Positions 9,861 to 51,686 of a stretch of DNA of 64,000 bases are shown here, piece after piece. Every line of letters begins with the position of its first letter. The first letter of the stretch is position 1. Below the pieces are notes generated by a model, which was not told the DNA's origin, did not search any database, and saw nothing but the letters and a program-made list of their open reading frames with translations. Made by a program: the position numbers and the translations under genes. The stretch is from a virus, in the IMG/VR virus record IMGVR_UViG_3300027861_000011, positions 129,839-193,838 of that record; one strand, written 5' to 3'.

Positions 9861-10115
9861 ATGAAAGATTTAATTAGACAACGTTTAAATGAAGAAATGA
9901 ACAAATCTGACGTAAAGAGTGAGGTTAAGAAATATATGGATTCTTCTGACTTTAAAGTAAAGGTTGAGAAGATAGTTAAAGATAGAATTAAAAACGATAA
10001 AGTATTAGAAGATAAGGTGGTGGAAATATCTAAGAATGTGTTAAGTCAATTATTCAAACAATTATGGGTTAAGAGGTCAGCATATATTAATGGCATAACA
10101 AATAAAGCTAATTAA
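9861..10115 (+). CDS. small protein with leader MKDLIRQRLNEE
   Basis: Leader ending L-x-E; TATTTATA upstream. Confidence 0.65.
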   Translation: MKDLIRQRLNEEMNKSDVKSEVKKYMDSSDFKVKVEKIVKDRIKNDKVLEDKVVEISKNVLSQLFKQLWVKRSAYINGITNKAN

Positions 10116-10116
10116 G

Positions 10117-11940
10117 ATGAAGAAGATAAAAATAAACGAAACTCAAGCTAATATGCTTAAAGAAATTGGGGTATCAAAAGTACTTAAGGTAACCCAAGAA
10201 CAATACAATAGAATTGTTGAGATGGAGCAATTAAGTGAAAAAATTGATTTAGTTAGTAATGAAGGTGATAACTTCGATATAATTAAAACCGACACTGATT
10301 ATTATATTAGTAATAGAACAACAAATTATAACCCAAAAGACACTGCACATATTGGCAGCATTCAAGAAATAGGTAATGATAAGAAAAAAATATGTATTAT
10401 GGCTGATAGAGCATTTGAACTTTTTGAAGAAATGGGGTCAGATGGAAATAAACAGTCCGACTTTGAAAACTTAGAAGCTAGAGCTATTTTTAAAACACCA
10501 TTTATCTCTGCTTGTAAAAGCAATATATCTGAAAAATTTATATCCAATCCAGCTCACCCAATATCTATGTCTTTTCGTAGGGAACTAGATGAAGCTAAAA
10601 CTAGCGTAAGAGAAATGTATGAAGAATTCGTTAATGAACTTTATAATGTTAACGAAGGTGGTGAAAGAAAATACGAAAGTCTTATTAGTCTAATGGAAAC
10701 TGTAGGACTTATTGAAAATAGAAGAATTAAAAAAGAATCATTTAGAAATGACAAAGCTATTGTTGAAAAAGTAATAAGTGCTGGTCTTCACGAAATTAGT
10801 AATGGTGGTAGTAAGTATAAAGCAATGGAAGCTATTGAAGAAGCATTAAGAAAAGGCCCAACTGGCATTGACCCTAATGTAGATGTTGAGCCTAGCTTTG
10901 TAAGTTCTAAAACTGGTACATCACCAGAAGCGTTATTACAAAAGATTAAGGATGCGAGAGCAGAGTCAAATAGGTTAGTAACTAAGAATGATATTGAAAG
11001 AGATAGAATGAATAGTAAAATGGTTTATGACCCAGAATCTAAAGATGTTCGAGATGAAGCTGTTGATGCTTTAGTTGATGGAATGAAAGGTGACCAACAA
11101 GAAATGAAGAAGGAAACTATTACTAAGATAAAGGAAGAAGGTAATAGAGATAATTGGAAAGGTGATGAGATACTAAATCACCCAATGTTAGCTAAGTTAC
11201 CAACAGATGTTATGAAGGCAGACAATAGTATTTATTTTAAATTACCAAGTCTTGATGGTGGACATTCAGCTACACTTGCTACACATATAGGACATGTTAT
11301 GGATTGGATTAGTGACTTAAAGAGTATTGTTCAAGAAATTCCAGTAGTTGATTCTGAAATGAATGTATTGAATAAGGGATACGTAGGTAGAGATATTGAA
11401 AAACTTAGAGCAATTTCTAACCATGAAAGGGAGTATGGGGACAGAAAGTTTAATACTGACGAAACAACTGCTGATTCATCTGGACAATCAACTGGTCCTT
11501 TAGGAGGTCCATCACATAAATCAAATGTGGTATCAAACCTTGATGTTGACGAAATGACATCTATGGGTGGTACAAATGGTGTGGGTGGTTTACAAGCTAA
11601 TGGAAATAGTATGGCATATGATGCACCAGGACTTAAGAAGAATAATTTTATGATGGCTGGGAATAAAGAAAATAAATCTGAGAGTGTGATTGATAATACT
11701 AATGAGGAAATTACAGAAGATGCTTTTAGTAGTACACAATATCCAGGCGGTACAATAGTAACACCAAAAGAGAAGTGTAAAAAATTCCCTTACTGTGATG
11801 AAGGTCCAGGAAACTTCGATGAAAAGAAGACAAAAGAATCAGTAATATCAAACGATACTAATGTATATGAAACGATAGCTAAAAAGACTGGTAGAACTAT
11901 TAGTGAGATAAAAGAAATAATAGAAAATAGTATTAATTAA
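10117..11940 (+). CDS. large acidic protein, probable prohead core/internal virion protein
   Basis: Many I/L-x-E motifs, low-complexity acidic linkers, KCKKFPYC motif; function inferred. Confidence 0.55.
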   Translation: MKKIKINETQANMLKEIGVSKVLKVTQEQYNRIVEMEQLSEKIDLVSNEGDNFDIIKTDTDYYISNRTTNYNPKDTAHIGSIQEIGNDKKKICIMADRAFELFEEMGSDGNKQSDFENLEARAIFKTPFISACKSNISEKFISNPAHPISMSFRRELDEAKTSVREMYEEFVNELYNVNEGGERKYESLISLMETVGLIENRRIKKESFRNDKAIVEKVISAGLHEISNGGSKYKAMEAIEEALRKGPTGIDPNVDVEPSFVSSKTGTSPEALLQKIKDARAESNRLVTKNDIERDRMNSKMVYDPESKDVRDEAVDALVDGMKGDQQEMKKETITKIKEEGNRDNWKGDEILNHPMLAKLPTDVMKADNSIYFKLPSLDGGHSATLATHIGHVMDWISDLKSIVQEIPVVDSEMNVLNKGYVGRDIEKLRAISNHEREYGDRKFNTDETTADSSGQSTGPLGGPSHKSNVVSNLDVDEMTSMGGTNGVGGLQANGNSMAYDAPGLKKNNFMMAGNKENKSESVIDNTNEEITEDAFSSTQYPGGTIVTPKEKCKKFPYCDEGPGNFDEKKTKESVISNDTNVYETIAKKTGRTISEIKEIIENSIN

Positions 11941-11959
11941 CTTTTTACTAAAAACTTAG

Positions 11960-11967
11960 TATTTATA
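11960..11967 (+). promoter_or_regulatory. putative late-gene motif TATTTATA
   Basis: 15 nt before ATG 11983. Confidence 0.55.
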
Positions 11968-11982: not shown

Positions 11983-13854
11983 ATGAACAAAAATATAATT
12001 AAACAACATCTTAGTAAGACTTTTATATCTGAAGATACAGCACATAAAGCAACTAGTGAAACAAAGAAAGTTCAAGACCTCTCAGGAGCGACAAATAAGG
12101 ATGCAATGAATAATGTTGCAAAAGAAATGAAAGACTATGATAAGTCTTCCAAAGAATCTGAAAAAGAAAATGCAGATTCTGTAAAGAAATACGAAAACGA
12201 TAATAAACAAGATGAGTTACATGATTTAGGTGAATTACAAAATGGTAGCCTTGCAGCTACTAAGTACGGTAACGAGCCTGGTAAGGATTTTGAAGCTATG
12301 CAAAAAGCTGCAATTACTGGTACTGACTCTAAACTAGGTAATAGTAAGGACTATGCTAATGTAATACCAGCTGACCAAGCTGGATTCACTGGGCCAGAGT
12401 TCGGTGAGAACTTATATAGTGATATTAAAAAATCTGCTAAACTTAGAGCTGACGCTGAAAGTAAATATAATAGATTATCAACTGGGGTTAGTGGTGCTGA
12501 TTTCGATGATAAAAAAATAAATGAACCTAAAAAGATTAATGAAGGTTTAAAGCCAGATAATATTGCGTTAATTAAGAAATGGGTTGATGAACTTGGTTGT
12601 AGAAAAGCGGGAATAAAGTTAATTGATACGTTTCTAAATAAAATGATAGCCATGTCAAGCTCAGATTTAGGTGACACGTATATTTTTGTAGATGGTTTGG
12701 ATGCTGTAGAGGAAGACCTAATTGTTGGTGAATATGATAATGCATTTGATAATGCCAAAGAAACAGCAAGAGAAATGATTGCTGATGAATTTGGTACATT
12801 AACTGGAGGTATAAAACATTTTAATGAAAATAAAGTAATAAAAAAAGAAAAAATGAAAAGACTTGTATTTAACAAACCATTCAACGGTGTAACGAACGCA
12901 TTAAATCTTATTCCAGAATCTTATAAAATTAATAATAAAGAATTTCACATGACTGATGGTGATGAGAAATATGAAATCAGATGGGAAGGAAACCTTAATG
13001 AAGGTAAAGCTATCATTACTAAAGCGTCCGATAAGACGATTATGAATGAGGACATGGTACAGATGAAACATCTTATGGGATATAAATCAGAGAATACTCT
13101 TGGTAACCTTAAAGGTTCCGAAAGAATTAATGAAAACGCATCATTCAATGATATATGGAATAAAACTAAAGGACTATTAAATGAAGATGAACAAGAAGTA
13201 CAGAGAATTAAAGATTATTTGATAAAAAAAATGAGTGTTGATGGAATTGATAAAAGAGAATTCTTAATGAAGTTTTTAAAAGGGCAAGCACCTGTTGGGT
13301 ATAATGGTCGTGAAAGAATGGAAGATAGAACTACAGCTGCTAAATCTTTATTAAATGCGTTAGATTCAGAATCTTACGAAGAAAACCAAACATTAAGTGA
13401 ATCTTGGGAATCAGAATACTTAAGCAACACTCTATTCAAAAAGTTAGAGGATGAAAAAGGTGTAGGAAGAGGTAGTGACGAAGGTCGAAAACTAGTAAAA
13501 AACGTATTGGACCCCTTTGAAGTTGAGATGAATAAATTTAAAAAATTCATCACAAAAAGTTATAATAACCCCGATGAGAACGAGGTAAAGCGTAAGCTAA
13601 AAGGTGAGATTGAAAGAATAGTAAACGGTGGTAAAGAATTAGGAATAGAAGAAGATGTGATGATGGATGCTATTATTGGACAAATATATTCTGAATACTT
13701 TAATAGAGGTAGTGGTTCTTTCGTAAGGTTATATGATAGTAACCATGTCATGTTTATGTTAAATGTCGTAAAAGAGGTGTTAGTAGAGCTACAATATAAC
13801 GATAAAACATTTGGTATTACATCAAGAATTGATAGATATTTAAAATCAGCCTAA
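11983..13854 (+). CDS. probable prohead core/internal virion protein
   Basis: Repeated INE/LNE/LSE motifs; shares a ~110-aa domain with 13888 gene. Confidence 0.55.
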   Translation: MNKNIIKQHLSKTFISEDTAHKATSETKKVQDLSGATNKDAMNNVAKEMKDYDKSSKESEKENADSVKKYENDNKQDELHDLGELQNGSLAATKYGNEPGKDFEAMQKAAITGTDSKLGNSKDYANVIPADQAGFTGPEFGENLYSDIKKSAKLRADAESKYNRLSTGVSGADFDDKKINEPKKINEGLKPDNIALIKKWVDELGCRKAGIKLIDTFLNKMIAMSSSDLGDTYIFVDGLDAVEEDLIVGEYDNAFDNAKETAREMIADEFGTLTGGIKHFNENKVIKKEKMKRLVFNKPFNGVTNALNLIPESYKINNKEFHMTDGDEKYEIRWEGNLNEGKAIITKASDKTIMNEDMVQMKHLMGYKSENTLGNLKGSERINENASFNDIWNKTKGLLNEDEQEVQRIKDYLIKKMSVDGIDKREFLMKFLKGQAPVGYNGRERMEDRTTAAKSLLNALDSESYEENQTLSESWESEYLSNTLFKKLEDEKGVGRGSDEGRKLVKNVLDPFEVEMNKFKKFITKSYNNPDENEVKRKLKGEIERIVNGGKELGIEEDVMMDAIIGQIYSEYFNRGSGSFVRLYDSNHVMFMLNVVKEVLVELQYNDKTFGITSRIDRYLKSA

Positions 13855-13887
13855 TGAAAATTTAGTATTAAAAAAAAAAAGAAAAAA

Positions 13888-18158: not shown

Positions 18159-18692
18159 ATGAAAAAGAATAGAATACTTACGGAGTCTGAAAAGAAAGAA
18201 ATATTAAATAACAAGGAACAATTAATTATTGAGAGTTTCAGAGAAGAGTTTAATAAGATTAAAAGAACTAATGAATCTAATTTAAATGAAACTCCATGGA
18301 ATGGTAATCCAGAAAGTAATTGGGTTCCATTTGATGATAAAGTAGAAGTAGAGCTTTACGGACTTAAAGACGTTACAATCACCCTACCTTTTAATGGAGA
18401 GTATTCTATTGATGGTGAAACAAGTGGTAACGGAAGTTTTAGTTTATCGGCTGAAGATTTAGCTAATATTTTTCCAGAAGGGTATGAAGAAATTAAAGCG
18501 TTTGGAATTGAAATAGCTGACGCAATGAAAGCTAAAGCAGTTAACTCACATGAAATAAGCCGACCACATACGGTAACAATTAACGCTAATAAATTAAGAA
18601 ATTTACCACACTATAATGATGTCGAAGGGTATATGAGTCATTATTTTGATAATGGATTAGAGCACGGTAATATTACATACGACAGAGATTAA
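18159..18692 (+). CDS. leader family A protein (MKKNRILTESEKKEILNNKEQLIIESF...NE)
   Basis: First ~39 aa nearly identical to 30160 gene; TATTTATA at 18136. Confidence 0.7.
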   Translation: MKKNRILTESEKKEILNNKEQLIIESFREEFNKIKRTNESNLNETPWNGNPESNWVPFDDKVEVELYGLKDVTITLPFNGEYSIDGETSGNGSFSLSAEDLANIFPEGYEEIKAFGIEIADAMKAKAVNSHEISRPHTVTINANKLRNLPHYNDVEGYMSHYFDNGLEHGNITYDRD

Positions 18693-18693: not shown

Positions 18694-19254
18694 GTGAGAA
18701 GATTTGATAAGAAAAATAACATAAGTAAGGTTAATCTATTAGCCGAACAAAGATATCTTAAATCGAAGAGTGAGTCTAACTCTAATCAAGAGATATACGA
18801 TGCTCTATCAGACAACCCAAATAACTATAAGGTTGTTATGAGTAATAATTCAGAAGTTAATTTTACCCCGATATCAACGCAAAAACCAGGTATGAAACCA
18901 AAGGGTCTTTGGTATGGTATCAATACATCATGGATTGATTGGGTTAGAAGTGAAATGCCATCATGGGAAAGTGAGTTTATTCATATTATAACTCTAGATT
19001 CATCCAATATGTTACAAATTAACAATATTGAAGAGTTAAGCGAATTCACTTCAATATATACTTATGAGGATAGTGAATATATTAACTGGCAAGAAGTAGC
19101 TAATAAATATAACGGTATTGAAATTAGTCCTTATATTTGGGAAGCTAGAATGAAATTTATGTGGTATTATGGGTGGGATATAGCATCTGGATGTATATGG
19201 GGTAACGGAACCATTGTAGGTTCGAAATTAATCACTACCGCAGAAGGATTATAA
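18694..19254 (+). CDS. leader family B protein with Trp-rich cargo domain
   Basis: MRRFDKKNNISKVNLLAEQR leader shared with 37745 and 38814; GTG start. Confidence 0.7.
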   Translation: MRRFDKKNNISKVNLLAEQRYLKSKSESNSNQEIYDALSDNPNNYKVVMSNNSEVNFTPISTQKPGMKPKGLWYGINTSWIDWVRSEMPSWESEFIHIITLDSSNMLQINNIEELSEFTSIYTYEDSEYINWQEVANKYNGIEISPYIWEARMKFMWYYGWDIASGCIWGNGTIVGSKLITTAEGL

Positions 19255-30159: not shown

Positions 30160-30738
30160 ATGAAAAATAATAAAATACTTACAGAGTCTGAAAAGAAAGA
30201 AATATTAAACAATAAAGAACAATTAATAATTGAAAGCTTTAGAGAACAATTCAATAAGATTAAGCGAATTAATGAAAACGAACTTAAGGAGGAAGATGGT
30301 GCTAACGCAAAGTACATCTTGGACCAAGTAAAGAATTTTGTTGATGATACTTCAGCTATTGCCTCTGGTTGGTACATTTCAAACGGGATGAAACCAGAGG
30401 AAGATTGGCTAAATCAAATAAACTATACGAAAGGTGAAGTTATGCGTAAGGTTAATTCACAAAGGGGTGATTCTTTAGAAGAAAAATTAAAAGGATTTTT
30501 TGAACAAAGTAAATCACACTTTGGGTTAGAAGAACCACCATATGGTTCTAAATCTTCAGATTTTCGAACGGTAATGAAAAAAATGAGAGATAAAAATGGA
30601 ATTATTAACGCAACTAGAGTAGACGCTCACGAAGCATTTAAAGTGGGTGATAAATACAGTACCCAAGTTTCTAATATAATTTTTAGTGTTTCTGGAATGA
30701 AACCATTTGATTTTATGTCATTAATGTTTAAAGGATGA
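30160..30738 (+). CDS. leader family A protein
   Basis: Leader shared with 18159; TATTTATA at 30136. Confidence 0.7.
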   Translation: MKNNKILTESEKKEILNNKEQLIIESFREQFNKIKRINENELKEEDGANAKYILDQVKNFVDDTSAIASGWYISNGMKPEEDWLNQINYTKGEVMRKVNSQRGDSLEEKLKGFFEQSKSHFGLEEPPYGSKSSDFRTVMKKMRDKNGIINATRVDAHEAFKVGDKYSTQVSNIIFSVSGMKPFDFMSLMFKG

Positions 30739-33056: not shown

Positions 33057-34571
33057 ATGACAAAGAATGATATTAAACATTTTCTTAATGAGGATGTCCA
33101 AAATATATTTGAATCTTCTTACGTTTCAAACGTTTTAGGGATAACTACAACCCTAAATGAAAGTTATGGTGTCTTAGATAAAAGACTAATTATTGAAGAA
33201 CAATTACTATTAGAAGGTTGGTGGGATGACCTTAAAAATTTACCTGGTAAATTAAAAGAAATTTTTAGTGTATTAAAAAAAGTAGTTACAGAACCAAAAT
33301 ATATAAATAAATGGGTTACAGGTATTAAATGGAGTATATTCGATGGGGATAGTGATAAAATTATAAAATTTCTAGAAGAATTATCTAGTTCTTCTGAAAA
33401 TAAATTAAGTGGGTTAGCTAAACAATTATTAAATAAATTAAAAGGTTTTTTCGATAAGATTTTATCAATGTCTGGGTGGAAATTAGGTATTGGCATTACT
33501 GCTCTAGGTTTAATGGTACAATGGTTATGGAAAAAATTTGGTAAGATGATTACTAGTGGTATTAAAAATTTGAATGGTAAAGCAATAAAAGAACTATTAA
33601 CTAGTCTTGGTCAAGAAGCAACAAAATCAATAGGGTCAATGTTAATTTCGTTTAGTGGTATTGGTGCCTTAGTTAATTGGGCTATTAAAGCATTTGGGGG
33701 GGCTAAATTCATAATAGATAAGTTAAGTCCAGCTGTAGATGGATTTAATGACCATGACAATACTATCTACACCAAAAAACATGAAAACGTGAACATAGTT
33801 AAAACATTACTTAAAGAGAACCTTCACGTTGAGAGTTCTCTTAACGAGTTAAAAGACGAATTAGACTTCTCATCTTTTAAGATGAACCCAACACTAAATC
33901 CATATGTGTGGAAAAATGTAGAATTAATTAGGAAACCAATAAAAGATGTTCTTATTAAGATTGCTGATGAATATTGGGAGTCATTGGAATTAGGTTTTCC
34001 TTATAAAGACATTACAATGACTGGTTCATTAGCCAATTTCAATTGGTCTAAGTATTCTGATTTAGATTTACATATTATTTTTGATATGGATGAACTTGGG
34101 GAAGATGCTGAACTAATAAAATCATTATTAGATGTTAGTACTAGAAAATGGAACTATGACCACAATATATCCATAAAAGGATTTGATGTTGAAATATATC
34201 TCCAACCAGAACACATAACTCACTATTCAACTGCCGTTTATTCACTTATTAACGATGAATGGATTGTTGAACCAACAAAACAAACAGTAAGACTTGATAA
34301 GGATAGTATTAGAAAGAAATATAAGACTTATGTTAAGACTGTAGAGGACATTAAGAAATTAGAAAGTAATGAAGAGAAGATTAGTAGACTTGATAAACTA
34401 AAGGATAGGATTAGTAAGATGAGGAAATCTGGTCTTGAAGCTAATGGTGAATTCTCAGTTGAGAACATTGTTTTCAAATTACTTAGAAGAAACGAAATAA
34501 TAGAAACTATTAACGATATACTTACAAAAGCCTATGATGATTCAGTTAGTATTGACGAGAAATACAAATGA
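33057..34571 (+). CDS. leader-bearing two-domain protein: amphipathic N-domain plus Pol-beta-type nucleotidyltransferase
   Basis: TGSLANFNWSKYSDLDLH and DVEIY; TATTTATA at 33045. Confidence 0.75.
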   Translation: MTKNDIKHFLNEDVQNIFESSYVSNVLGITTTLNESYGVLDKRLIIEEQLLLEGWWDDLKNLPGKLKEIFSVLKKVVTEPKYINKWVTGIKWSIFDGDSDKIIKFLEELSSSSENKLSGLAKQLLNKLKGFFDKILSMSGWKLGIGITALGLMVQWLWKKFGKMITSGIKNLNGKAIKELLTSLGQEATKSIGSMLISFSGIGALVNWAIKAFGGAKFIIDKLSPAVDGFNDHDNTIYTKKHENVNIVKTLLKENLHVESSLNELKDELDFSSFKMNPTLNPYVWKNVELIRKPIKDVLIKIADEYWESLELGFPYKDITMTGSLANFNWSKYSDLDLHIIFDMDELGEDAELIKSLLDVSTRKWNYDHNISIKGFDVEIYLQPEHITHYSTAVYSLINDEWIVEPTKQTVRLDKDSIRKKYKTYVKTVEDIKKLESNEEKISRLDKLKDRISKMRKSGLEANGEFSVENIVFKLLRRNEIIETINDILTKAYDDSVSIDEKYK

Positions 34572-34753
34572 AAGAAAGAATAAGAATATTATTAAAAGAA
34601 TCTACTAAAAAAGATAAAATTAAATATCAAATTAGATACGTAGATGGACCATTATTCTATAAAAAGAATAAAGATAAATGGCAGTTTATAACTGCTGAAG
34701 AGTTTATTGATAATGTTTGTGATGGTGAGATAATTAAGTGGGATAAAAAATAA
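34568..34753 (+). CDS. small leader-bearing protein
   Basis: MKERIRILLKES. Confidence 0.6.
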   Translation: MKERIRILLKESTKKDKIKYQIRYVDGPLFYKKNKDKWQFITAEEFIDNVCDGEIIKWDKK

Positions 34754-34759: not shown

Positions 34760-35218
34760 ATGAAACTAACCAACCTATACGAAGAGATTACGGAAAAATT
34801 ATATTTTAATGAAGCAAGTGATGGTGGTAGAATGATATTTATCCTCATGAATGATAGAACAAGTGTTGGTTATATTAATATTGATTATATACCTAATGGT
34901 TATGATAAGTTTGAAGAGTATATGGGTGAGGATGAGTACTTACATTTATTTAGAGGTGATAGCTTTTACGAAATAGAACATATTGAAGTAGATAAGAAAT
35001 ATGGTAATGAGGGTTATGGTGGTAAGCTTATGGAAAAGGCTATTGAAGCTGTAAGGAGCAAGGGCGGTAAAGCAATATACTTAAACGCCTCACCAATAAA
35101 ACATGAATCTTTAGACTTAGATACACTTATTAATTTTTACGGTAAGTTTGGGTTTAAAATAATACCCGACATTGATGATGGCAATAATGATAATAAGGAA
35201 ATGATGCTTAGGTTATGA
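34760..35218 (+). CDS. GNAT acetyltransferase with leader MKLTNLYEEITE
   Basis: IEVDKKYGNEGYGGKLM motif A; LINFYGKFGF. Confidence 0.8.
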   Translation: MKLTNLYEEITEKLYFNEASDGGRMIFILMNDRTSVGYINIDYIPNGYDKFEEYMGEDEYLHLFRGDSFYEIEHIEVDKKYGNEGYGGKLMEKAIEAVRSKGGKAIYLNASPIKHESLDLDTLINFYGKFGFKIIPDIDDGNNDNKEMMLRL

Positions 35219-36420
35219 ATATAAAGAAATTATTAAAAGAATCGTTAATTAGTGTTTACAACAATGAAGTATTAAATAATAACGCTATTAATGAAGCTGA
35301 TGGTCACGAAGACTCTAAATCTACTTGTGTTACACCACAAGCGTTAGCGGATGACATGACTAAAGAATTGTTAAGGATTAATACTGCGGCTAAAGATAGA
35401 ACTAGTAGAGGTACTAAAGATGTTATATATCACAGGAAACAAATCCAAGCAGTAATAAATAAAGAAGGTGGTCTTGATGTTGATGGATTTAAGAAGTTAA
35501 TCACGACACCACCTAAAGTTATTTTCGACAAGAATCCTAAGATGGAAAAGAGTGATAAGGGTAAATCACAATATACAGTTAACACTGGACTACCAGCAAT
35601 ATCTGGTATTGTATGGGATAAGTCTGATAGTACATTTAAACATGTTAACACTTGCCCTGGTGCTGGCTCTTGTCAATTAGTATGTTATGCTAGAAAAGGT
35701 TTCTACGGAATGAATGATGGTAAAATACTTAAACTAATTAGAAGACTTAATCTATTATGGAACGACACTGAAGAATATTATAATATGATAATGGATGAAT
35801 TAGAACCATTAGCTGTTAAGTTAAAAAGGCAAGGTAGAAGAAGCGGTGAAGTAGACCAGTTAGTTATTAGATGGAATGATGCTGGTGATTTCTTTAGTGA
35901 AGATTATTTTAAAATAGCGCAGAGAGTGACGGCTGACTTATTAGAAGATGGTTATGATGTTAAGTCCTATGCTTATACTAAACAAGCTAAGTTCGTTGAT
36001 TTAGCTAGTGAGAAGTTTATTATGAATTTTTCTAAAGGTTCGGCACCAGCTGAATTAAGAAAGGTGGATATTGATAATGTAAAATACTCCGATATAGTTC
36101 AAAGAGTAGATACTGAAGGTAACCCAATGTTTAAAGATTTATTCGCTAAAGGTGTTGACCCAGAAACTGGTGGTAGAAAGAAATATGATATAAACCCAGA
36201 AACTGGTTTACCTAATTTTATAGATGGTGGTGCTAAAGAACTTAAGATGAGAATATCTAAAGAATACGGTGTACCATTTGAAAGACTCAGATACCAATTC
36301 GAATTACCACCCGAAGAAGGTGAAAAGTTTCAATACGATGTTATAGTACTACCAACTGGTGATACAGACATAGGGGCTCAAAGACATGATGTTCAAAAAA
36401 CATATTTATTAATCCATTAA
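35215..36420 (+). CDS. Gp88-like (radical-SAM-like Cys cluster) protein with leader
   Basis: CPGAGSCQLVCYA, IRWNDAGDF, YAYTK. Confidence 0.65.
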   Translation: MNIKKLLKESLISVYNNEVLNNNAINEADGHEDSKSTCVTPQALADDMTKELLRINTAAKDRTSRGTKDVIYHRKQIQAVINKEGGLDVDGFKKLITTPPKVIFDKNPKMEKSDKGKSQYTVNTGLPAISGIVWDKSDSTFKHVNTCPGAGSCQLVCYARKGFYGMNDGKILKLIRRLNLLWNDTEEYYNMIMDELEPLAVKLKRQGRRSGEVDQLVIRWNDAGDFFSEDYFKIAQRVTADLLEDGYDVKSYAYTKQAKFVDLASEKFIMNFSKGSAPAELRKVDIDNVKYSDIVQRVDTEGNPMFKDLFAKGVDPETGGRKKYDINPETGLPNFIDGGAKELKMRISKEYGVPFERLRYQFELPPEEGEKFQYDVIVLPTGDTDIGAQRHDVQKTYLLIH

Positions 36421-36452: not shown

Positions 36453-36456
36453 TAAA

Positions 36457-37635
36457 ATGAAAGATTTTATCAGAAATAAAGTAAGGAAAGGTTTAATCAA
36501 CGAAAATAGAGTTAAAGTGGATATTCCAATCCCAGAAAACATTATAAAGATTAAAGATATCTTTATTAAGAACGGACACAAACTATTTGTCGTTGGTGGT
36601 GCGGTTAGAGACGCTTTATTAGGTAAGACTCCAAAGGATTGGGATTTAGCAACTGATGCATTACCAGACAAGGTAGAATCAATGATGGCAAAAGCTGATT
36701 TAAGAACAATCCCAACTGGAAAAGCTTTTGGTGTAATCAACGTATTCGTTGACGAAGAAGAATTTGAAATCGCAACTTTTAGAACCGATGTGGGTAGCGG
36801 TAGAAGACCAGATTCAGTAGAGTTTACAGATATAGAAACTGACGTTAAAAGGCGTGACCTTACGGTCAATGCACTTTTCTTTGACATAGACACCAAAGAG
36901 GTTGTTGACCTTGTGGGTGGTATTGACGATATTAAGAATGGTGTTATTAGAACTGTTGGTAAACCAGAAGAAAGATTTGGAGAGGATAGACTTAGAATTC
37001 TTAGAGCAATTAGATTTGCTGCTAGATTCGGAAGTGAATTAGAGCCAGATGTAGAAGCTGCCCTTAAGAACGATTCTAGTCTTGAAGGTATATCACCAGA
37101 AAGAATCAGAGATGAATTCCTTAAGGGTCTTAAAACAGCTAAGAGAGTAAGACACTTCTTATCATTAATAGATAAGTTTGGATTATTCGATTGGGTATTC
37201 AGAGGTCTTAATATAGATAAGGACTTCATTGAAGATAAAGACCCAATGGTTGTTATTGCAACACTATTAAAGAGTAATCATTTCACCGATTTACCAAAAG
37301 CACTTAATAAGTTAAAATATAGTGCTGATGAAACTAATATTATTACTTTCTTAGTGTCATTACTTGAATTCAATAAGGTTGGTGCGGATGATGTATCTAG
37401 TTTAGGTGTTAAGTTAAATAAGATGATGAAGAAAACTAAAGTTACTTCAGACCAAATCAGAAACTTCGGTGGTAGAGCTGGTATCATGACTCAAATACTT
37501 GACGCATTAGAACAATTTGAATTAAGCGTTTCTGGACAACAAGTTCAAGATGAAACTGGACTTAAGCCAGGTATCGAACTTGGACAAGAAATACAAAGAA
37601 GAGAAGTAGCTAACTTCAATAGTTTACTTAGTTAG
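36457..37635 (+). CDS. cca: class II tRNA nucleotidyltransferase (CCA-adding type) with leader MKDFIRNKVRKGLINE
   Basis: VGGAVRD, DWDLATD, RRDLTVNA, EDRLR, ERIRDE; GKAFG rather than the PAP GRRF signature. Confidence 0.85.
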   Translation: MKDFIRNKVRKGLINENRVKVDIPIPENIIKIKDIFIKNGHKLFVVGGAVRDALLGKTPKDWDLATDALPDKVESMMAKADLRTIPTGKAFGVINVFVDEEEFEIATFRTDVGSGRRPDSVEFTDIETDVKRRDLTVNALFFDIDTKEVVDLVGGIDDIKNGVIRTVGKPEERFGEDRLRILRAIRFAARFGSELEPDVEAALKNDSSLEGISPERIRDEFLKGLKTAKRVRHFLSLIDKFGLFDWVFRGLNIDKDFIEDKDPMVVIATLLKSNHFTDLPKALNKLKYSADETNIITFLVSLLEFNKVGADDVSSLGVKLNKMMKKTKVTSDQIRNFGGRAGIMTQILDALEQFELSVSGQQVQDETGLKPGIELGQEIQRREVANFNSLLS

Positions 37636-37744: not shown

Positions 37745-38737
37745 ATGCGAAGGTTTGATAAGAAAAAGAATATAAGTAAAGTTAATTTATTAGCTGAACA
37801 AAGGCACCTCAATAGTAAGGGGTTAATAAAAGAGGGCATAAATGAATTAGATATTGACACATACGCCAAACAACTAGATAATACTGGTGACTATGGCCAA
37901 ACAACATTCTCAAGCAACGAACCAAACAAGTACGATAACCCAAGACAAAAGGGTAATAAACAAAAGAGAGTTAATCGTTTATCAAGAGAAGGTTTTGAAA
38001 AAGAATTTTATAAAGCATACCCAGTAGACGTTACTAAATTAGTTTCTGAGACTGGTACATATTTTTTTAAGAATATTAAGTGGGAATCAAACTACTCAAG
38101 TTATTCATTACAATTTATTAGTGAAAGTGGTGAAAGTCATCTATATATTAAATCGGATACATCTTCACCAAAAGGTTATTATATTGAATTCAATAAGAAA
38201 CCAAACCTTTCTCCAGGTGCTGAAGAATTAATCAGAAAAATGTTTTCACACAATATGAATTACAGAAACAAGTCCTCAGATAGTTTAGTTAAAGAGGAAG
38301 AGTATGATTTCATAAGAGACTTTAAAGCGACACATGGTAGAAATCCAAGTTCATCTGAACTTAGACGTGGTAGTATGGATATAAACAAGGGTATGGAAAA
38401 CCCACTACCAACACCTCAAGACACCCAGGATGTTATTAAACTACCTAATAAAGAACTAATTGCTAAAACAATTAATCAACCATATAGATTTAAATTTGAA
38501 TACTTAAATGATGAAGAGCAACAACTTTATAATGAATTTAAGGAACAAGTTAATATGATAACTAAAGCTTTGATTAAAAACGGGTTGTTTAGTGAAGAAT
38601 CTTATACAGATGGTATGTTAAATTCTTTCAATAAAGGTAAGTTAAAACATAACCAAACTATAAGAAAATTTATTGACCAATTTAAAGAAAAGGTTAACCT
38701 TTTTGTATATAAAGAATATTGGGGTAATTTCTATTAA
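37745..38737 (+). CDS. leader family B protein
   Basis: MRRFDKKKNISKVNLLAEQR...INE; TATTTATA at 37721. Confidence 0.7.
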   Translation: MRRFDKKKNISKVNLLAEQRHLNSKGLIKEGINELDIDTYAKQLDNTGDYGQTTFSSNEPNKYDNPRQKGNKQKRVNRLSREGFEKEFYKAYPVDVTKLVSETGTYFFKNIKWESNYSSYSLQFISESGESHLYIKSDTSSPKGYYIEFNKKPNLSPGAEELIRKMFSHNMNYRNKSSDSLVKEEEYDFIRDFKATHGRNPSSSELRRGSMDINKGMENPLPTPQDTQDVIKLPNKELIAKTINQPYRFKFEYLNDEEQQLYNEFKEQVNMITKALIKNGLFSEESYTDGMLNSFNKGKLKHNQTIRKFIDQFKEKVNLFVYKEYWGNFY

Positions 38738-38813: not shown

Positions 38814-39944
38814 ATGAGAAAATCAGATAAGAAAAAAAACATGGGCAAGGCTAATCTATTAGCTGAAACAAGATACCTTGAATCAAAAGGTATATTAAAT
38901 GAAGATAGAAAAGAAAATATGGGGAGTAGATTTAGTGGTAATATGAATGAACACCAGTATTTGAATAGTTGGATAGACTCAGCATTAGAATTGGAAATCG
39001 ACCCTAATGACATGAACGCCAAACAGGATTATGTATTAAATTTCCGAATCCAAAATGACAGCCTTGGTAAGGTGGATAAAAATAGTGATTATTATAGAGA
39101 TTTACTAAAGAAAGTAACAGAGTTAAAAGAAAAAGGTCATCAACTCTGGCCTGGTCAATTGGATTTTATGCCAGAGGTATTGGAAGAAAGTTCAGCAGTA
39201 GATTATGAAAAGGTAGAATCAAATATTAATACTAATAATCTTAATTTTACTTATAAGTACGATGCTGCTGAAGGGCCTACTGAATCAGAGTATATTACTG
39301 GTCCGATTAAAGTTGAGTTCGTTAAGGGTATGGGTTCAAACCTAATAATGGCTGAAATTCCATTATTTAATTTCGAAACCCGCAAAAAAGGCGGCTCAAG
39401 ATTAAGATACATGTTTAACAATAAAGACAAAGAAAGTAGCTTGAGTTTTAATTATAGAGGTAATCGTTGGGAAAACTTCTTTGATGTAATTGACACTCAA
39501 TATCATTCAAGTTTTGAGAAAGTTAAAAAAGAGTTAGATGATATGGCTCATGGCGACAGAGGGTGGAATACAAATGAAGATGTAAGACCTTTGGTTACAG
39601 AAGATTCTGGTGGTGAATTAGACTTATTTAATCCACCTAATTGGCATAGTTTAGCTAGTTCAGTTTTTGATTCTCGTATCCCACAATTCAACTCCCAAAA
39701 AACTAACAGTAAAGCAATGGCTAATGATAATAAGGTACTATTTCTATATAGAGTTTTAACAGAAGAACAACTTGGCCAGAGTATGGGTTATATAAGTCTT
39801 GATTATGGGCATAGTAGTTATGAAATATGGACCAACAACGAACCATTCATGGCTAAATATTTAAAAAGAAACGGTAAAGACCCAGATGCTTATTCATTTA
39901 TAAACTCGAATGGTGAATACAGTGGTACTGAACCTAAAAACTAA
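38814..39944 (+). CDS. leader family B protein
   Basis: MRKSDKKKNMGKANLLAETRYLESKGILNE. Confidence 0.7.
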   Translation: MRKSDKKKNMGKANLLAETRYLESKGILNEDRKENMGSRFSGNMNEHQYLNSWIDSALELEIDPNDMNAKQDYVLNFRIQNDSLGKVDKNSDYYRDLLKKVTELKEKGHQLWPGQLDFMPEVLEESSAVDYEKVESNINTNNLNFTYKYDAAEGPTESEYITGPIKVEFVKGMGSNLIMAEIPLFNFETRKKGGSRLRYMFNNKDKESSLSFNYRGNRWENFFDVIDTQYHSSFEKVKKELDDMAHGDRGWNTNEDVRPLVTEDSGGELDLFNPPNWHSLASSVFDSRIPQFNSQKTNSKAMANDNKVLFLYRVLTEEQLGQSMGYISLDYGHSSYEIWTNNEPFMAKYLKRNGKDPDAYSFINSNGEYSGTEPKN

Positions 39945-40222: not shown

Positions 40223-40255
40223 TTATTTTACTATGTTTCGATATATTTATATAAT

Positions 40256-41173
40256 ATGAAAGGGTTTATAAAAAAATTACTTAGAGAGGGATTAAATGAA
40301 GCTAATTTCGGTGAACATTCTGTTGATAGATTTAAAGAACGTTTTAGTGAATTCAGTGATGAAGATATTCCACAAAGTGTAAAGCAAGGGATAATAAAAA
40401 ATCTTGATACTATTGAGAGAACAGATTTCCCAATTAATAAATCATACGGTGTAATGCTTGGGTCAATCCCAGTTAATAAAGAGTCACAATACTACAAGGC
40501 TTATCTTGAAACTGTTAAGGCTGGTAATACAATGGGTAAAGGTGGTTCTTATTATAGTATTATTGGTGATAAAAAACGTATCATTAAAGATTCAACAGGT
40601 AATCAATTCTGGGTTGTGATAAGAAACAACGAAGTAACTACATTCATGCTTAGAAAAGATGTTCAAACTAATGACTCTAATTATACTATTGAGAAGTTAA
40701 GGGTTGATAGTGTTATTAAGAACTTAAAAACGTATCTTGAGAAGAAAGAACCAGCTCCACGAAGAACAGATAAGTTCAAACCACTTAAATTAAGTAATAA
40801 TGAAAAGGTTAGGTACTATAAAGACCTAAATAAGTTTGAAACTCTTAAAAGTGGTGAACCAATAAATTTAGTTGATATTTTTGACTTATTACCAAATGAT
40901 GAAATGATGTTAGATATATTCTCTAAAGCATCTAAAGAAGAAAAAAACGAATTAATTGATAAAATGCCAGAACATTTAGAAGATAAGGTGATGGAGTTAA
41001 TGGAATCAATAGAATTACCAGTTGAAATAGGTGATACTGTCTTAATGGGTAAGTTTAAAAACAAAAAGGTTGTTGTTAAAGACATTAAATGGGATGAAGA
41101 AAAAGGTGATTTACATATCAATGGTAAACCAGCACTTAAGATGAGATTAATAAAGAAACTTGAAGATAAGTAG
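40256..41173 (+). CDS. leader-bearing multidomain protein
   Basis: MKGFIKKLLREGLNE; TATTTATA at 40244; HSVDRFKER motif. Confidence 0.7.
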   Translation: MKGFIKKLLREGLNEANFGEHSVDRFKERFSEFSDEDIPQSVKQGIIKNLDTIERTDFPINKSYGVMLGSIPVNKESQYYKAYLETVKAGNTMGKGGSYYSIIGDKKRIIKDSTGNQFWVVIRNNEVTTFMLRKDVQTNDSNYTIEKLRVDSVIKNLKTYLEKKEPAPRRTDKFKPLKLSNNEKVRYYKDLNKFETLKSGEPINLVDIFDLLPNDEMMLDIFSKASKEEKNELIDKMPEHLEDKVMELMESIELPVEIGDTVLMGKFKNKKVVVKDIKWDEEKGDLHINGKPALKMRLIKKLEDK

Positions 41174-41709: not shown

Positions 41710-42159
41710 ATGAAGGAAAATATTAAAAATATACTTAGGGAAGACGTATCTAAAAACGTCTTAGGTGACCCACCATCAAGCACTAATAAGATTGCTATGC
41801 TTGTGTTGGATTCAAATTCACAAAATAAATTGATTAACGTTACAAAGGAATATATTCCAGAGGGGTGGAAGTTATATGCTCATCATATGACAATTAACTT
41901 TGGTAAAGGGTTACCAGAAGAGTTAAGGGGTGACTTGGGTACTACTAAGTCGGTTAGGGCTGTAGAGATAGGCGTAAGTGACATGGCTGTTGCTATAAGG
42001 GTTGAGGGTTATCATTCAGATAATGATATACCACATGTTACTATTGCGGTCAACCCTAATGGAGGAAAACCTGTTATGTCTAATAAGATTACAAATTGGG
42101 AAAAGTTAGAGAATTATATTAATCTTTCTGGTGTAGTATCAGAAGAAAAACTAAATTAA
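41710..42159 (+). CDS. 2H phosphoesterase (tRNA-ligase CPD-like) with leader MKENIKNILRE
   Basis: HHMTI and PHVTI HxT motifs. Confidence 0.75.
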   Translation: MKENIKNILREDVSKNVLGDPPSSTNKIAMLVLDSNSQNKLINVTKEYIPEGWKLYAHHMTINFGKGLPEELRGDLGTTKSVRAVEIGVSDMAVAIRVEGYHSDNDIPHVTIAVNPNGGKPVMSNKITNWEKLENYINLSGVVSEEKLN

Positions 42160-48212: not shown

Positions 48213-48266
48213 TATAAGAATTCTTATATTAAGTTCTTTTTAATTTGTTATAATATTTATATATGA

Positions 48267-49079
48267 ATGAAATTATCTAATCTATATAAGGACATATTAA
48301 AAGAAGAATACGAGGATGGTAAATTATATGGCTACCACGTAACAAGTTCGAATAATTTAGAAACAATTAACAATAATGGCTTTAAAGTAGGTCATAGGTC
48401 TATGCAAGGTAAAGGTGTTTATTCATTTTACGATTTGTATGATGCAATACGTTACGCTAACAAGGGTGAAGTCTCAAGTCCAGTAATAGTTAAGTTCAAA
48501 ATAACCAATCCACATTCCTTAATGATTATCAAGACCGATATAGCTAAAGAAGTATTTGGTTCAGACTATCATATTGTAGACCAAATAAGTAGAAAGTATT
48601 GGAACGGTGAAAGGGGTGTGGAAGGTTTCTTATTGGGAGCTCAAAAAGTATATAAACAAGATTACACTATGGAGGCACTAATAGCGGAACTTAATGAAAT
48701 CGAAACCAATAATACAGAAAGTAACCAAAGAATCTTTTGGTCTTATATGATGCCTAAGACAGAATCCGATAGATTAAATCTCTTACATAATGGTAATTAT
48801 GGTATAGAATATAGAATCAATTATACAAACCTAATGTACCCAATGGGTTATTATTCTCTTAATTCAGAACGTAATTTTAGTGATTATAATGAATTTGAAA
48901 AGGATAATGAAATCCCACCTGGTGAAGAATATGATGATTTAAGAAGAGCTAAGGGTAATTTAGATTTACACACACTTAAGGTAAAATTAGAAGCTCAACA
49001 ATATAAAGTAAGAAATAATCGTGACTATGATTTATTAAGTAAACTAATAAGTCAAATAACAGACTTAACGGGATATTAA
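48267..49079 (+). CDS. ADP-ribosyltransferase-like (H-Y-E type) protein with leader MKLSNLYKDILKEE
   Basis: YGYHVT...I...GF...GKGVYS...A.RYA...GIEY; TATTTATA at 48254. Confidence 0.6.
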   Translation: MKLSNLYKDILKEEYEDGKLYGYHVTSSNNLETINNNGFKVGHRSMQGKGVYSFYDLYDAIRYANKGEVSSPVIVKFKITNPHSLMIIKTDIAKEVFGSDYHIVDQISRKYWNGERGVEGFLLGAQKVYKQDYTMEALIAELNEIETNNTESNQRIFWSYMMPKTESDRLNLLHNGNYGIEYRINYTNLMYPMGYYSLNSERNFSDYNEFEKDNEIPPGEEYDDLRRAKGNLDLHTLKVKLEAQQYKVRNNRDYDLLSKLISQITDLTGY

Positions 49080-49083
49080 TAAG

Positions 49084-49317
49084 ATGAAATCACTAATCAA
49101 AAAATTACTTAAAGAAGCTCTAGAACCAAACACAATAGGTATTGGTTATTTAAGAGGAATATTAAAGAATACAACTAATAAGACAGCTCAAAAGTATTTG
49201 AATAGTTGGATAAGTAAGGGGACTGACATAATTAAATTATCACCAAAACAATACGCAATGCTTAAGGTAATTGAAAAAGGTGGACCTAGTTCTAAATTTT
49301 ACGACTCAAAAAATTAA
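49084..49317 (+). CDS. small leader-bearing protein
   Basis: MKSLIKKLLKEALE. Confidence 0.6.
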   Translation: MKSLIKKLLKEALEPNTIGIGYLRGILKNTTNKTAQKYLNSWISKGTDIIKLSPKQYAMLKVIEKGGPSSKFYDSKN

Positions 49318-49388
49318 ATAACGCACACTAAAAAATAGTATATACCATTTATACTGTTTTTTTATCGTAAATGTTTATATTTATATAT

Positions 49389-51686
49389 ATGAAACTTTCT
49401 AGTATATATCAGAATATAATAAATGAAAATTTTAAGACTCAAACAAAGCGTTTTATAGGTCAAGGATTTGAAGCGGATATCGTTAAAAGTTATATAGATA
49501 AATTCAAACATATTAGTAAGAATAAATACAAAGAAGCTAAAAGTGAATTACAAGGTGTTAATGTACCACTAGAACGTAGATTTGATATTGACGCTTATAA
49601 GAGTTTTCGAGAATTGGAAATACTTGTTGATTATGTTGGTGGTCAAAGGTCTGTTGCTACTAATATGAAGAGTAATATTGAAGTAAGTGGTGAAGCGGTA
49701 TATAAAGATAATGGTATAGAAGTTTTCTACGCTGACAATCCAAGGGCATGTGTTAAATATAAGGGCAATATACCGTATAGTTGGTGTGTTTCTAGGTCCG
49801 ATTCATCTAATATGTTCTACACATATAGATTCAAACCATATGAACCAGCATTCTATTTTGTTAAAGATTTAAAAGCTACCGAAAAAGAGTTTAAGGTGTG
49901 GAATATAGGTAAAAATATATTCAAGGGGTCATTTTCAAACCCATATCACTTTTTTGTTATACAAGTACCAAAAAATCTAAACCCAGAAGATAATGAAACT
50001 CCACAATATATTGTAACATCAGCTAATAATGACGGTGATAAACAAATGAGCTGGAATGATATCATTAAAACAAACCCAGAGTTAAAATCGATAAAAGAGG
50101 TTTTAAAACCTAAACCATTTACGCCAGATGAAAGAAATCAACACCAGAGGTTTAAAAATGGTATTAGTGATAGTGAATTTATCAAACTATCATACGAAGA
50201 TAAAAGAAATTATTTAGACATATACCCAACAATTGGTAAAGCAATAACACCTGAACAATTAAAGTCTCTTCCAGATGATTTACTTAACCTATATGTTTCT
50301 TTTGGTATTGGTTTAGATAATGACCAACACGAATACGTGTCCACAGAAAAAAGAAAAGCTTTCAGAAGATATACTCAGATTACTAAACGTAAATTTGATG
50401 AGTATATTAAAAATGATAGTTATAGTCGCTCACAACTAAAATTAAACTGGAGCGAGTTAACATCTTTACCAGACGATAATGTTGGTGAGTATTTAAAAAC
50501 TTTAACAACTTCCGATATTAATAACTTTGTACAAAATAATGGGTGGGAATCAATGGAGCTAATCAAGAAGCATTTTCCAGAAAAATTTGATAAAGAGGAT
50601 GTTGATATTGTCCCATTAATTACAAACGCAAACACTAGTATAGAAGCTGAAGAAAAATTAAACGCTCTAACCCCAGAATCAGTAGAGGTTAGAGCCAATA
50701 GCCATTATATAGAATTTGATATAAGTGGGATGGTTGATGATTTTTACGATAATTTAGGTATCACTTGGGAAATTTCGGGATTACACGATAAAATTTATTA
50801 TGGTGACTATGATTATGAGTTACATTACGGAGCAGACTATTTCGATGGATATGAAGAAGGTTTAGATATAGAATTGAAAAGTAGAATTGATGAAATCGTT
50901 AGAAGTAATTTGGAATTAAAAGATGATTTTATTAACTCAGGTTTAGAGTTTAACTTTACCACTATTAAGGAGTTATTAGAAACTTATGACGTATTAGATG
51001 ACATAGCTAATGAAATATCAACTGAGTTTGGTGAAGCTGAAAATAGAGGAGTTGCGAAAGAAGGTGAGAAAATTGGTAATAAAATGGGTAAAATAATGAA
51101 TGTTGATGCATCTCAAAATGAGATTAGTATTCACCCAAGAGCGTTAATAATGTATATTCATGGTAATGAATTCTTCACTACAGACCCAGATGATTTTAAA
51201 GATAATATAACAAACCTTTTAAATGAACTTTACTCAGACTATGATTTTCCAGAAAATACAGACGATTTTTTTGAGTGGACTAGAGATGCTGGTTATGGGG
51301 CCGAAGATATTGACGAAGATTACTTAAACAGAACCATAATATCCAAGATTGAATACGCATTAAATGAATACCTTAAGGCATCATATGAAGGGGAAGAAGA
51401 CGATACTAACATAGCGAAACTTAAATCTGAAATCATATCACACCTTAACGATACCCTAGTTAAATTAGGTGAGAGTCCAAACGCAAAAGTAATACAAAAT
51501 GATGTTGCTAGAATTTTTATAGATAGAGATAAATTTAAATTAAATGGTCAAGTCTATATCACGTTAACAACTAGCGATGGTAAAAGTCAAGAGGGGTATG
51601 TTAATATTAATGACATACCAACCTACTTCACTAACTATAAGCTATTTGAAGCGATACAAAGGTTCAATTCATTAATACCACGCTAA
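49389..51686 (+). CDS. large leader-bearing protein
   Basis: MKLSSIYQNIINE; TATTTATA at 49378; C..Y....SWCVS...FYF motif. Confidence 0.75.
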   Translation: MKLSSIYQNIINENFKTQTKRFIGQGFEADIVKSYIDKFKHISKNKYKEAKSELQGVNVPLERRFDIDAYKSFRELEILVDYVGGQRSVATNMKSNIEVSGEAVYKDNGIEVFYADNPRACVKYKGNIPYSWCVSRSDSSNMFYTYRFKPYEPAFYFVKDLKATEKEFKVWNIGKNIFKGSFSNPYHFFVIQVPKNLNPEDNETPQYIVTSANNDGDKQMSWNDIIKTNPELKSIKEVLKPKPFTPDERNQHQRFKNGISDSEFIKLSYEDKRNYLDIYPTIGKAITPEQLKSLPDDLLNLYVSFGIGLDNDQHEYVSTEKRKAFRRYTQITKRKFDEYIKNDSYSRSQLKLNWSELTSLPDDNVGEYLKTLTTSDINNFVQNNGWESMELIKKHFPEKFDKEDVDIVPLITNANTSIEAEEKLNALTPESVEVRANSHYIEFDISGMVDDFYDNLGITWEISGLHDKIYYGDYDYELHYGADYFDGYEEGLDIELKSRIDEIVRSNLELKDDFINSGLEFNFTTIKELLETYDVLDDIANEISTEFGEAENRGVAKEGEKIGNKMGKIMNVDASQNEISIHPRALIMYIHGNEFFTTDPDDFKDNITNLLNELYSDYDFPENTDDFFEWTRDAGYGAEDIDEDYLNRTIISKIEYALNEYLKASYEGEEDDTNIAKLKSEIISHLNDTLVKLGESPNAKVIQNDVARIFIDRDKFKLNGQVYITLTTSDGKSQEGYVNINDIPTYFTNYKLFEAIQRFNSLIPR

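Follow-up and report, generated by a model that had tools for sequence, protein, structure and literature searches.

The window analysed here is a stretch of 64,000 nucleotides (nt) which forms the right-hand 64 kb of IMGVR_UViG_3300027861_000011, a 193,838-bp viral contig of IMG/VR from a large marine phage. This contig is about 55% complete according to CheckV, has approximately 30% G+C, carries nearly all of its genes on one strand and encodes a gp18-like sheath protein which matches T4-superfamily phages. A megablast search of window positions 33057-41173 against cultured phages gave no match. Some sixteen genes of the window start with a short N-terminal leader, typically ending in (L/I)-x-E, in front of proteins that are otherwise unrelated and several of which are enzymes. 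These leaders, their spread and their likeness to the propeptides of phage T4 internal head proteins are the subject of this work.

Leader-bearing genes of the window

A first-pass annotation of the sequence had proposed about 16 tagged genes, a number which agrees with ours: 11 short leaders, three leaders of the MRRFDK type and two of the MKNNKILTESEKK type. The eleven N-termini that it quoted were all recovered at their coordinates, the last one with its start at 49389. The genes are listed below with their length in amino acids (aa), the residue following the leader and the neighbouring copies of two recurrent upstream motifs, TATTTATA and the Bacteroidota-type TAnnTTTG. Two possible extra members close the list.

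9861..10115, + strand: 84 aa; leader MKDLIRQRLNE followed by E; TATTTATA at 9839-9846
33057..34571, + strand: 504 aa; leader MTKNDIKHFLNE followed by D; nucleotidyltransferase-like domain at aa 271-498; heads a late unit, with TATTTATA at 33031 and 33045
34568..34753, + strand: 61 aa; leader MKERIRILLKE followed by S; overlaps the stop of the 33057 gene, which places both in one unit
34760..35218, + strand: GNAT acetyltransferase; leader MKLTNLYEEITE followed by K
35215..36420, + strand: 401 aa; leader MNIKKLLKE followed by S; GP88 domain at aa 109-296
36457..37635, + strand: class II CCA-adding enzyme; leader of ~20 aa, MKDFIRNKVRKGLINE, followed by N; TAnnTTTG at 36445-36452
40256..41173, + strand: 305 aa; leader MKGFIKKLLRE, GLNE, followed by A; TATTTATA at 40244-40251; C-terminal ~50 aa form a mobile module
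41710..42159, + strand: 149 aa, 2H-phosphoesterase-like with two H-x-T motifs; leader MKENIKNILRE followed by D; TAnnTTTG at 41698-41705
48267..49079, + strand: 270 aa, putative ADP-ribosyltransferase (ART) fold; leader MKLSNLYKDILKE followed by E; TATTTATA at 48254-48261
49084..49317, + strand: 77 aa; leader MKSLIKKLLKE, ALE, followed by P
49389..51686, + strand: 765 aa, no family assigned; leader MKLSSIYQNIINE followed by N; TATTTATA at 49378-49385, 3 nt from the ATG
37745..38737, + strand: 330 aa; 30-aa MRRFDK-type leader ending LIKE, followed by G; TATTTATA at 37721-37728
38814..39944, + strand: 376 aa; MRRFDK-type leader ending ILNE, followed by D
18694..19254, + strand: 186 aa; MRRFDK-type leader; GTG start
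18159..18692, + strand: 177 aa; MKKNRILTESEKK-type leader of ~40 aa; TATTTATA at 18136-18143
30160..30738, + strand: 192 aa; MKNNKILTESEKK-type leader; TATTTATA at 30136-30143
11983..13854, + strand: possible extra member, 623-aa late protein starting MNKNIIKQHLSKTFISE followed by D; TATTTATA at 11960-11967; weaker cluster match
30791..31024, + strand: possible extra member, 77-aa late protein starting MNKFIKDIFTE followed by D; TATTTATA at 30766-30773

The N-termini of 206 open reading frames (ORFs) across the 194-kb contig, with starts set by a simple longest-ORF rule, were compared by ungapped BLOSUM62 scoring of residues 2-11, allowing shifts of at most 2, the motif of the first-pass annotation being left unused. 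This unbiased comparison gave 29 pairs scoring at least 25, against 1 after shuffling of each N-terminus and 3 of 13,695 pairs for control windows starting at internal Met. Single-linkage clustering at a score of at least 23 led to one cluster of 17, which includes the eleven short-leader genes and two genes outside of the window, at genome 128161(-) and 23107(-). The short leaders fall into two subtypes, MKxxI(K/R)xxL(K/R/N)E and MKLxN(L/I)YxxIxxE, and the DNA pattern for the first was found 4 times in the window vs 0.01 expected from shuffles. Among these 13 short-leader proteins, no pair is similar past residue 20 at E≤1e-3. The N-termini of DnaJ, DHFR and the sigma factors are devoid of leader, as had been proposed for host-like genes. 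A leader regular expression made by hand, designed post hoc, found 12/206 N-termini vs 1/973 internal Met and was replaced by the unbiased clustering.

For two leader genes the longest-ORF rule sets the start too far upstream (18096, 49371). The starts at 18159 and 49389 were preferred because of the TATTTATA copies at 18136-18143 and 49378-49385, respectively.

To the right of the contig, on the European Nucleotide Archive (ENA) contig k141_30520, a 185-aa HAD-like phosphatase (L017:2294-2851) starts with MKKNIKRILRE followed by D, which indicates that the tagged set reaches past the window. Another gene of k141_30520 (L017:8854-9201) starts with MSKIYIQNLVKE followed by S and is preceded by a TATTTATT motif. 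A very short N-terminal motif, K-(I/V)-I-N-E-(S/T/Q)-Q, was seen at genome 74683-76143(+), window 10117-11940 and genome 68993. The first of these loci, 55 kb left of the window, encodes 486 aa and opens with tandem units of ~17 residues, each with (I/V)-x-E-S-Q-Y-N-(K/R)-L-F; its product could be a core or spacer protein that is cut several times.

Conservation and exchange of the leaders

The conserved leader residues (Ile, Leu, Phe, Arg, Glu) are encoded by varied synonymous codons, which argues for selection on the peptide and not on the DNA. This observation bears on the idea that the similar gene starts reflect a translation-start constraint (leaderless or Shine-Dalgarno-less mRNAs, A-rich early codons) or 5'-end recombination, with no protein signal. 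Such an origin would fit with the fact that no Shine-Dalgarno sequences are evident upstream of the genes, that several TATTTATA copies end 3-5 nt before the ATG and that MK starts are common genome-wide. It is highly improbable given not only the codon usage but also the failure of shuffled N-termini of the same composition to cluster, the hydrophobic periodicity and terminal Glu kept across orthologues diverged by 35-63%, and the partial leader copies found inside proteins.

The leader was kept in all of 17 orthologues of the CCA-adding enzyme (63-81% identity, on contigs of up to 331 kb), with M1, I5, R10, L13 and E16 invariant. In one relative of 331 kb, the DnaJ/ClpP/CCA neighbourhood is the same and another gene carries a leader together with TATTTATA. 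The cellular homologues lack the leader, as had been anticipated: solved CCA enzymes are without the first ~20 residues, their alignments beginning at query aa 23-38 and chain aa 3-16. In the cultured Tenacibaculum jumbo phages pT24 and PTm1, homologues were found of the 40256 protein only; that of PTm1 starts at the domain, with no leader, and that of pT24 has a leader ending YLTE. The 48267 protein has 35 orthologues which differ in their leaders, with four types or more and lengths of 11-35 aa, and every leader ends x-E-E/S-(Y/F/L) just before the conserved domain, with E13 invariant. Among the 48267 orthologues it is the leader that can be exchanged and not the junction. In AlphaFold models of the CCA enzyme and of the 48267 protein, the leader is a detached helix of low confidence, and from roughly the junction onwards the body is modelled with confidence.

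These data also address the view that the leader belongs to the structure of each protein, for instance as a capping or dimerisation helix, and arose convergently in an AT-rich proteome. The Pfam alignment of the GNAT protein, which begins at aa 9, is in line with this view. We give it very little credence since the leader is absent from the solved cellular CCA enzymes and from the PTm1 homologue, is not docked in either model and is swapped freely in type and length between orthologues. Taken together, these results indicate that the leaders are real, modular, interchangeable and under selection at the peptide level.

A search with a profile of the MRRFDK leader recovered 588 clusters at 50% identity (240 at E≤1e-10), the listed matches being 29-616 aa long. 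In the best 150 of those matches, nearly all align from residue 1, or from residue 23 where starts were over-called. Glu30 is nearly invariant in 125 of these 150 MRRFDK-leader proteins, which show no conservation after it and in which Pfam scans found almost no known domains. Some of the longer ones contain internal full or partial leader copies ending LLKE. Two metagenomic proteins, P0189 and P0190 (427 and 616 aa), carry mid-chain a second full MRRFDK-type leader or partial copies (..AEQRYLxSKGLLKE), and may represent either polyproteins processed at every copy or gene calls that were fused.

Scanning IMG/VR for M-K-x-x-I-K-x-x-L-(K/R)-E gave at least 117 distinct matches, at least 100 of which open an ORF of 50 aa or more. 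Among the matches listed, most are on contigs of ~30% G+C, and TATTTAT lies within 40 nt upstream of 31% of the pattern ORFs vs 16% of background ORFs. Both pT24 and PTm1 encode a gp21 protease and a gp23 capsid protein, with I-x-E-S sites in the propeptide region of the latter. Each has its own N-terminal cluster ending (I/L/V)-x-E, namely M-x-x-I-x-x-Y-(L/I)-x-E in pT24 and (I/V)-x-E-(S/N)-F in PTm1.

The helical hydrophobic moment is 0.51 for the leaders vs 0.30 for other N-termini (p=7e-6), which is in the range of the T4 leaders (0.39-0.49), and the short leaders correspond to a cationic, strongly amphipathic helix. A helix of this kind could remain uncleaved and serve to localise or assemble proteins elsewhere, at the inner membrane, in a replication or assembly compartment or in a non-covalent multi-enzyme complex. 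This is the main rival explanation, and host-type promoter motifs found at two leader genes would suit such an action in the producing cell. We nevertheless consider it unlikely. What is invariant across swapped leaders is the x-E junction and not the charge or the hydrophobic face, and the 30-aa MRRFDK leader, highly charged and not membrane-like, still ends L-x-E before unconserved cargo. The internal partial copies ending LLKE suit a cleavage site, and the leaders of T4 gp24, internal proteins (IP) and Alt offer a parallel in a lineage with the same protease.

Proteins carried by the leaders

The CCA-adding enzyme was recognised above Pfam cut-offs by its PolyA_pol head (PF01743, E=6e-37) and by PF12627 (E=8e-8), and also matches phrog_2244 (E=5e-61). 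The GNAT protein matches Acetyltransf_1 above cut-off (E=9e-10) and the 35215 protein has a GP88 domain (PF17338, E=2e-21). The nucleotidyltransferase encoded at 33057 falls below cut-off for NTP_transf_2 (E=0.0016) and matches phrog_36119 (E=1e-38). The 2H-like protein has HMTI and HVTI motifs, with a tRNA_lig_CPD match (E=4e-4, 20.4 bits) below the cut-off of 23. The first-pass annotation had the domains starting right after the Glu, which does not always hold, as GP88 starts near aa 109 and the nucleotidyltransferase near aa 271. Its RNA-repair payload comes down to two or three cargoes.

An ART-PolyVal domain (PF18760, E=1.3e-10, 42.6 bits vs a cut-off of 31.2) is encoded by the leader gene at genome 128161-128862(-), 955 nt left of the window. 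Members of this family typically occur in proteins that are injected together with DNA (PMC7824862). Pfam gave no match for the 48267 protein, in whose 35 orthologues H24, Y52 and E181 are invariant. Its model has a predicted local distance difference test (pLDDT) score of 86.6, and ART toxins, PARPs or Tpt1 make up nearly all of the top VIA rows, with Z of 5.5-7.5, below the Z of 8 taken as clear, and root-mean-square deviations of 2.7-5.6 over 87-149 residues. Foldseek comparison of the model with the PDB gave no match at E≤0.001 (best E 0.027). An ADP-ribosyltransferase fold is suggested by this model.

No relative of the 40256 protein was found among viral contigs by a related-locus search. 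The mobile module of ~50 residues at its C-terminus (window 41020-41173, starting about ELPVEVGDTVLMGKFKNKK) recurs at 60-86% identity at the N-terminus, in the middle or at the C-terminus of many marine metagenomic proteins. Its fusion partners include Zeta_toxin/AAA_33 kinases, cytidylyltransferases and others, and several module-bearing proteins start with another leader type, M-D-K-L-T-E-(F/W/Y)-L-x-K-P-F-L-x-E. A strain with an identical 40256 protein was found in Logan SRR22586178 (L010) and compared with window 37745-41173. In this strain the gene after that of the 330-aa MRRFDK protein encodes 460 aa, not 376, and the next small gene 54 aa vs 63 aa, which points to cargo turnover within the island.

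Head machinery of the lineage

Pfam searches of the contig itself found no gp21 protease, HK97-type protease, gp23 capsid protein or T4 portal, and PHROG scans of ten large structural-looking proteins gave tail-fibre and generic virion matches only. We attribute the missing head genes to a head module lying outside the fragment. To the right of the contig, ~17 kb of k141_30520 yielded no head genes, only small early-type genes together with RNase R, SmpB and a sigma factor. To the left, the 69-kb ENA contig NODE_527 is 99.8% identical to genome 1-3130 over a shared 3.1 kb and extends leftward with, in this order, a large terminase, a 674-aa putative portal, small head genes, a GIY-YIG endonuclease, a Peptidase_S77 protease, an acidic 502-aa scaffold and a Gp23 capsid protein.

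The first-pass annotation had suggested looking for a gp21-type protease elsewhere in the genome. The Peptidase_S77 protein (L053:7649-8347 on NODE_527) is such an enzyme, with 32% identity to T4 gp21 (E=1e-21), and the segments ELxHP (ELDHP/ELNHP) and GVSSRGxGS align. In the T4 enzyme these segments carry the catalytic His and Ser. The capsid protein has LLTE at aa 57-60 followed by S, 14 residues before a VxxxVRR block which aligns to T4 aa 95-125. In T4 the maturation site FLTE (followed by A) precedes the equivalent block, and cleavage of the capsid protein at LLTE is predicted by this analogy. The scaffold and the N-terminus of the protease also bear (I/L)-x-E sites, and two MRRFDK-leader genes adjoin the capsid gene. 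This gene content indicates that the lineage has a T4-type head machinery.

Directly upstream of the prohead protease gene lies a GIY-YIG/NUMOD3 homing endonuclease gene (L053:6949-7647), comparable to segD between genes 23 and 24 of T4. A 250-aa protein (L053:4698-5450), encoded between the portal-like gene and that of the protease at the place of the core proteins gp67 and gp68 in T4, starts M-R-N-F-G-K-I-K-N-V-F-N-T-M-L-S-E, like the CCA leader, and its gene is preceded by a TATTTATT motif.

Outside of the leader and head genes, the window encodes a tmRNA with a long acidic tag (28961-29328). SmpB and an RNase R-like gene lie beyond the contig end (L016:16667-17143 and 12846-14777), and the three together make up a ribosome-rescue set.

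Upstream motifs and timing

TATTTATA occurs 88 times on both strands, with a copy within 50 nt upstream of 27 genes, among them a tail-fibre gene; on NODE_527 it precedes the terminase. The association between this motif and the leaders, which the first-pass annotation had put forward, was supported: a copy is present at 6/13 short-leader genes vs 21/193 others (odds ratio 7, p=0.003). The accompanying claim was that many leader genes have the motif upstream or lie in operons that do. A copy of their own within 50 nt was found for only 6/13, five further genes follow a TATTTATA-bearing gene with no gap, and 11/13 are in units headed by TATTTATA.

The distance from TATTTATA to the ATG is bimodal, being 3-5 nt in six genes (window 40244-40258, 48254-48269 and 49378-49391; genome 33340(-), 56858 and 120046) and mostly 12-20 nt in the others. 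If TATTTATA acts like a -10 box, the short spacing would imply leaderless late mRNAs.

A different role for the leaders would be that of a degradation or chaperone tag, read for example by a phage ClpP-like protease or DnaJ and timing the turnover of potentially toxic enzymes. A DnaJ-like protein is indeed encoded at 25564 in the window, the syntenic region of the 331-kb relative has DnaJ and CLP_protease genes, and some of the cargoes resemble toxins with ART folds. Neither an unfoldase partner nor a known degron pattern was identified. Such a tag would moreover leave unexplained the enrichment in the promoter motif of structural genes, the leader genes adjoining the capsid gene and the motif common to the capsid and scaffold propeptides, and we find this role quite improbable.

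Proposed interpretation of the leaders as capsid-targeting propeptides

Our preferred interpretation, which we consider probable though by no means assured, is that the short N-terminal peptides are T4-type capsid-targeting propeptides and that the system is here extended to enzymes. Core binding, cleavage, packaging, injection and the role of the cargo in the host are each transposed from T4 by analogy. The leader, of 9-16 residues (~30 in the MRRFDK family), would form an amphipathic helix that recruits the protein behind it to the scaffolding core while the prohead assembles. The gp21-family serine protease would then cut after the Glu of (L/I)-x-E at the junction between leader and cargo, a motif which would also mark the end of the capsid-protein propeptide and which recurs throughout the scaffold. 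The trimmed cargo would stay in the head with the DNA and enter the next host cell alongside it. This cargo would comprise two ADP-ribosyltransferase-type proteins, a GNAT, a nucleotidyltransferase, a CCA-adding enzyme, a 2H phosphoesterase and many small proteins with no known family.

Several points weigh against this interpretation. The (L/I)-x-E motif is present in 8.7% of internal 10-residue windows of this Lys/Glu/Ile/Leu-rich proteome, and, judging from the GNAT alignment mentioned above, the leader of the GNAT may be partly integral to the fold. Neither the protease gene nor the capsid gene is on this assembly; both come from the overlapping contig of a near-identical strain, whose identity falls to 80-97% deeper in the glycan island. 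Host-type TAnnTTTG, and no TATTTATA, lies directly upstream of the CCA and 2H genes and likewise of the CCA gene of the 331-kb relative, and the HAD-like leader gene sits among small early-looking genes. The assignment of TATTTATA as a late promoter derives solely from the nature of the genes downstream. For this phage and for the relatives with these leaders, support comes from sequence and models only. The CCA and 2H genes may be read through from upstream late units. In view of their TAnnTTTG motifs, action of the cargo before phage transcription, as the first-pass annotation had it, is an inference.

Comparison with known systems

Capsid-targeting sequence (CTS) leaders, carried by IPI-III, Alt and gp24, and their processing by gp21 are textbook knowledge for T4, and long propeptides are known for phiKZ-like phages. 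The N-termini of T4 (NC_000866) are MKTYQEFIAE followed by A for IPII/III, MAKINELLRE followed by S for gp24, MELITELFDE followed by D for Alt and MLKEQLIAE followed by A for gp22. The T4 internal head proteins join the core via CTS propeptides of 10-20 residues which are removed by gp21 (PMC5694885, PMC3012670), and those of T-even phages form a highly diverse set with the CTS alone in common (PMC3012670). The present system resembles T4 by its N-terminal leaders of ~10-20 residues ending (L/I/F)-x-E on unrelated proteins and by the conservation of a leader before highly diverse small cargo. It also has a gp21-family protease, a gp22-like scaffold and a gp23-type capsid protein in one lineage, and, like T4 with Alt, an ADP-ribosyltransferase in the cargo. 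It differs in that the leaders are basic, whereas the MKTYQEFIAE type of T4 is acidic or neutral, belong to at least four families interchangeable among orthologues and tag ~16-20 genes in 194 kb vs a handful in T4. The cargo here includes CCA-adding, 2H, GNAT, nucleotidyltransferase and HAD-like enzymes, the host is of Bacteroidota type (TAnnTTTG promoters, no Shine-Dalgarno) and, unlike in T4, what is known of leader function is read from the sequence.

In the jumbo phages phiKZ, 201phi2-1 and SPN3US, many head-internal proteins are cut C-terminal to Glu and paralogues have conserved N-termini (PMC5694885). Their gp21-related protease uses a (S/A/G)-x-E site, with a small P3 residue, and the propeptides are mostly longer than 100 residues. 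The leaders described here are in contrast T4-like in being short and in having L/I at P3, and the head genes find their direct matches in T4 families.

Iyer et al. reportedly described, in 2017, polyvalent proteins as giant multidomain proteins injected with phage or plasmid DNA. Their domain repertoire overlaps with that of our system in ART-PolyVal, GNAT, nucleotidyltransferase and RNA-repair-type domains, and injection of ART and GNAT domains is already documented for them (PMC7824862). Unlike in polyvalent proteins, the domains are found here on separate ORFs (61-765 aa), each with its own start and leader, although some metagenomic relatives do carry internal leader copies. Loading in phage P1 follows a hierarchy which requires DarA and Hdf, and is not known to use a shared short cleavable leader. 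The P1 Dar system (DarA, DarB, Hdf, Ddr, Ulx) consists of head-packaged anti-restriction proteins, and the system proposed here would resemble it in that multiple non-structural proteins are loaded in the head and delivered with the DNA (PMC9024508, PMC12810830). Such leaders were not described for Bacteroidota phages or huge marine phages in the literature searched, of which coverage was incomplete. The novelty appears to lie in the scale, in the existence of several interchangeable leader families and in the enzymes among the cargo.

Significance

A broader picture, which we put forward tentatively and rather doubt in its full extent, is that of a widespread clade of marine Bacteroidota jumbo phages (contigs of up to ~331 kb), each genome of which would load about 20 separate proteins via interchangeable leaders, drawn from hundreds of unrelated families clade-wide, in the manner of a polyvalent protein split into genes. 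Enzymes of tRNA repair (CCA-adding, 2H, nucleotidyltransferase) and of host modification (two ARTs, GNAT) would then arrive before phage expression.

If the leaders act as in T4, the set of injected proteins of uncultured jumbo phages could be listed from sequence alone. The 588 MRRFDK clusters and the MKxxIKxxLxE proteins would, in that case, offer an extensive and already sorted source of candidate proteins for anti-defence and host takeover. Packaging of CCA-adding and 2H enzymes would give phages a novel means of pre-empting host defences that target tRNA, and the interchangeable leaders could become packaging tags for phages of Flavobacteriia, comparable to the T4 CTS in E. coli.

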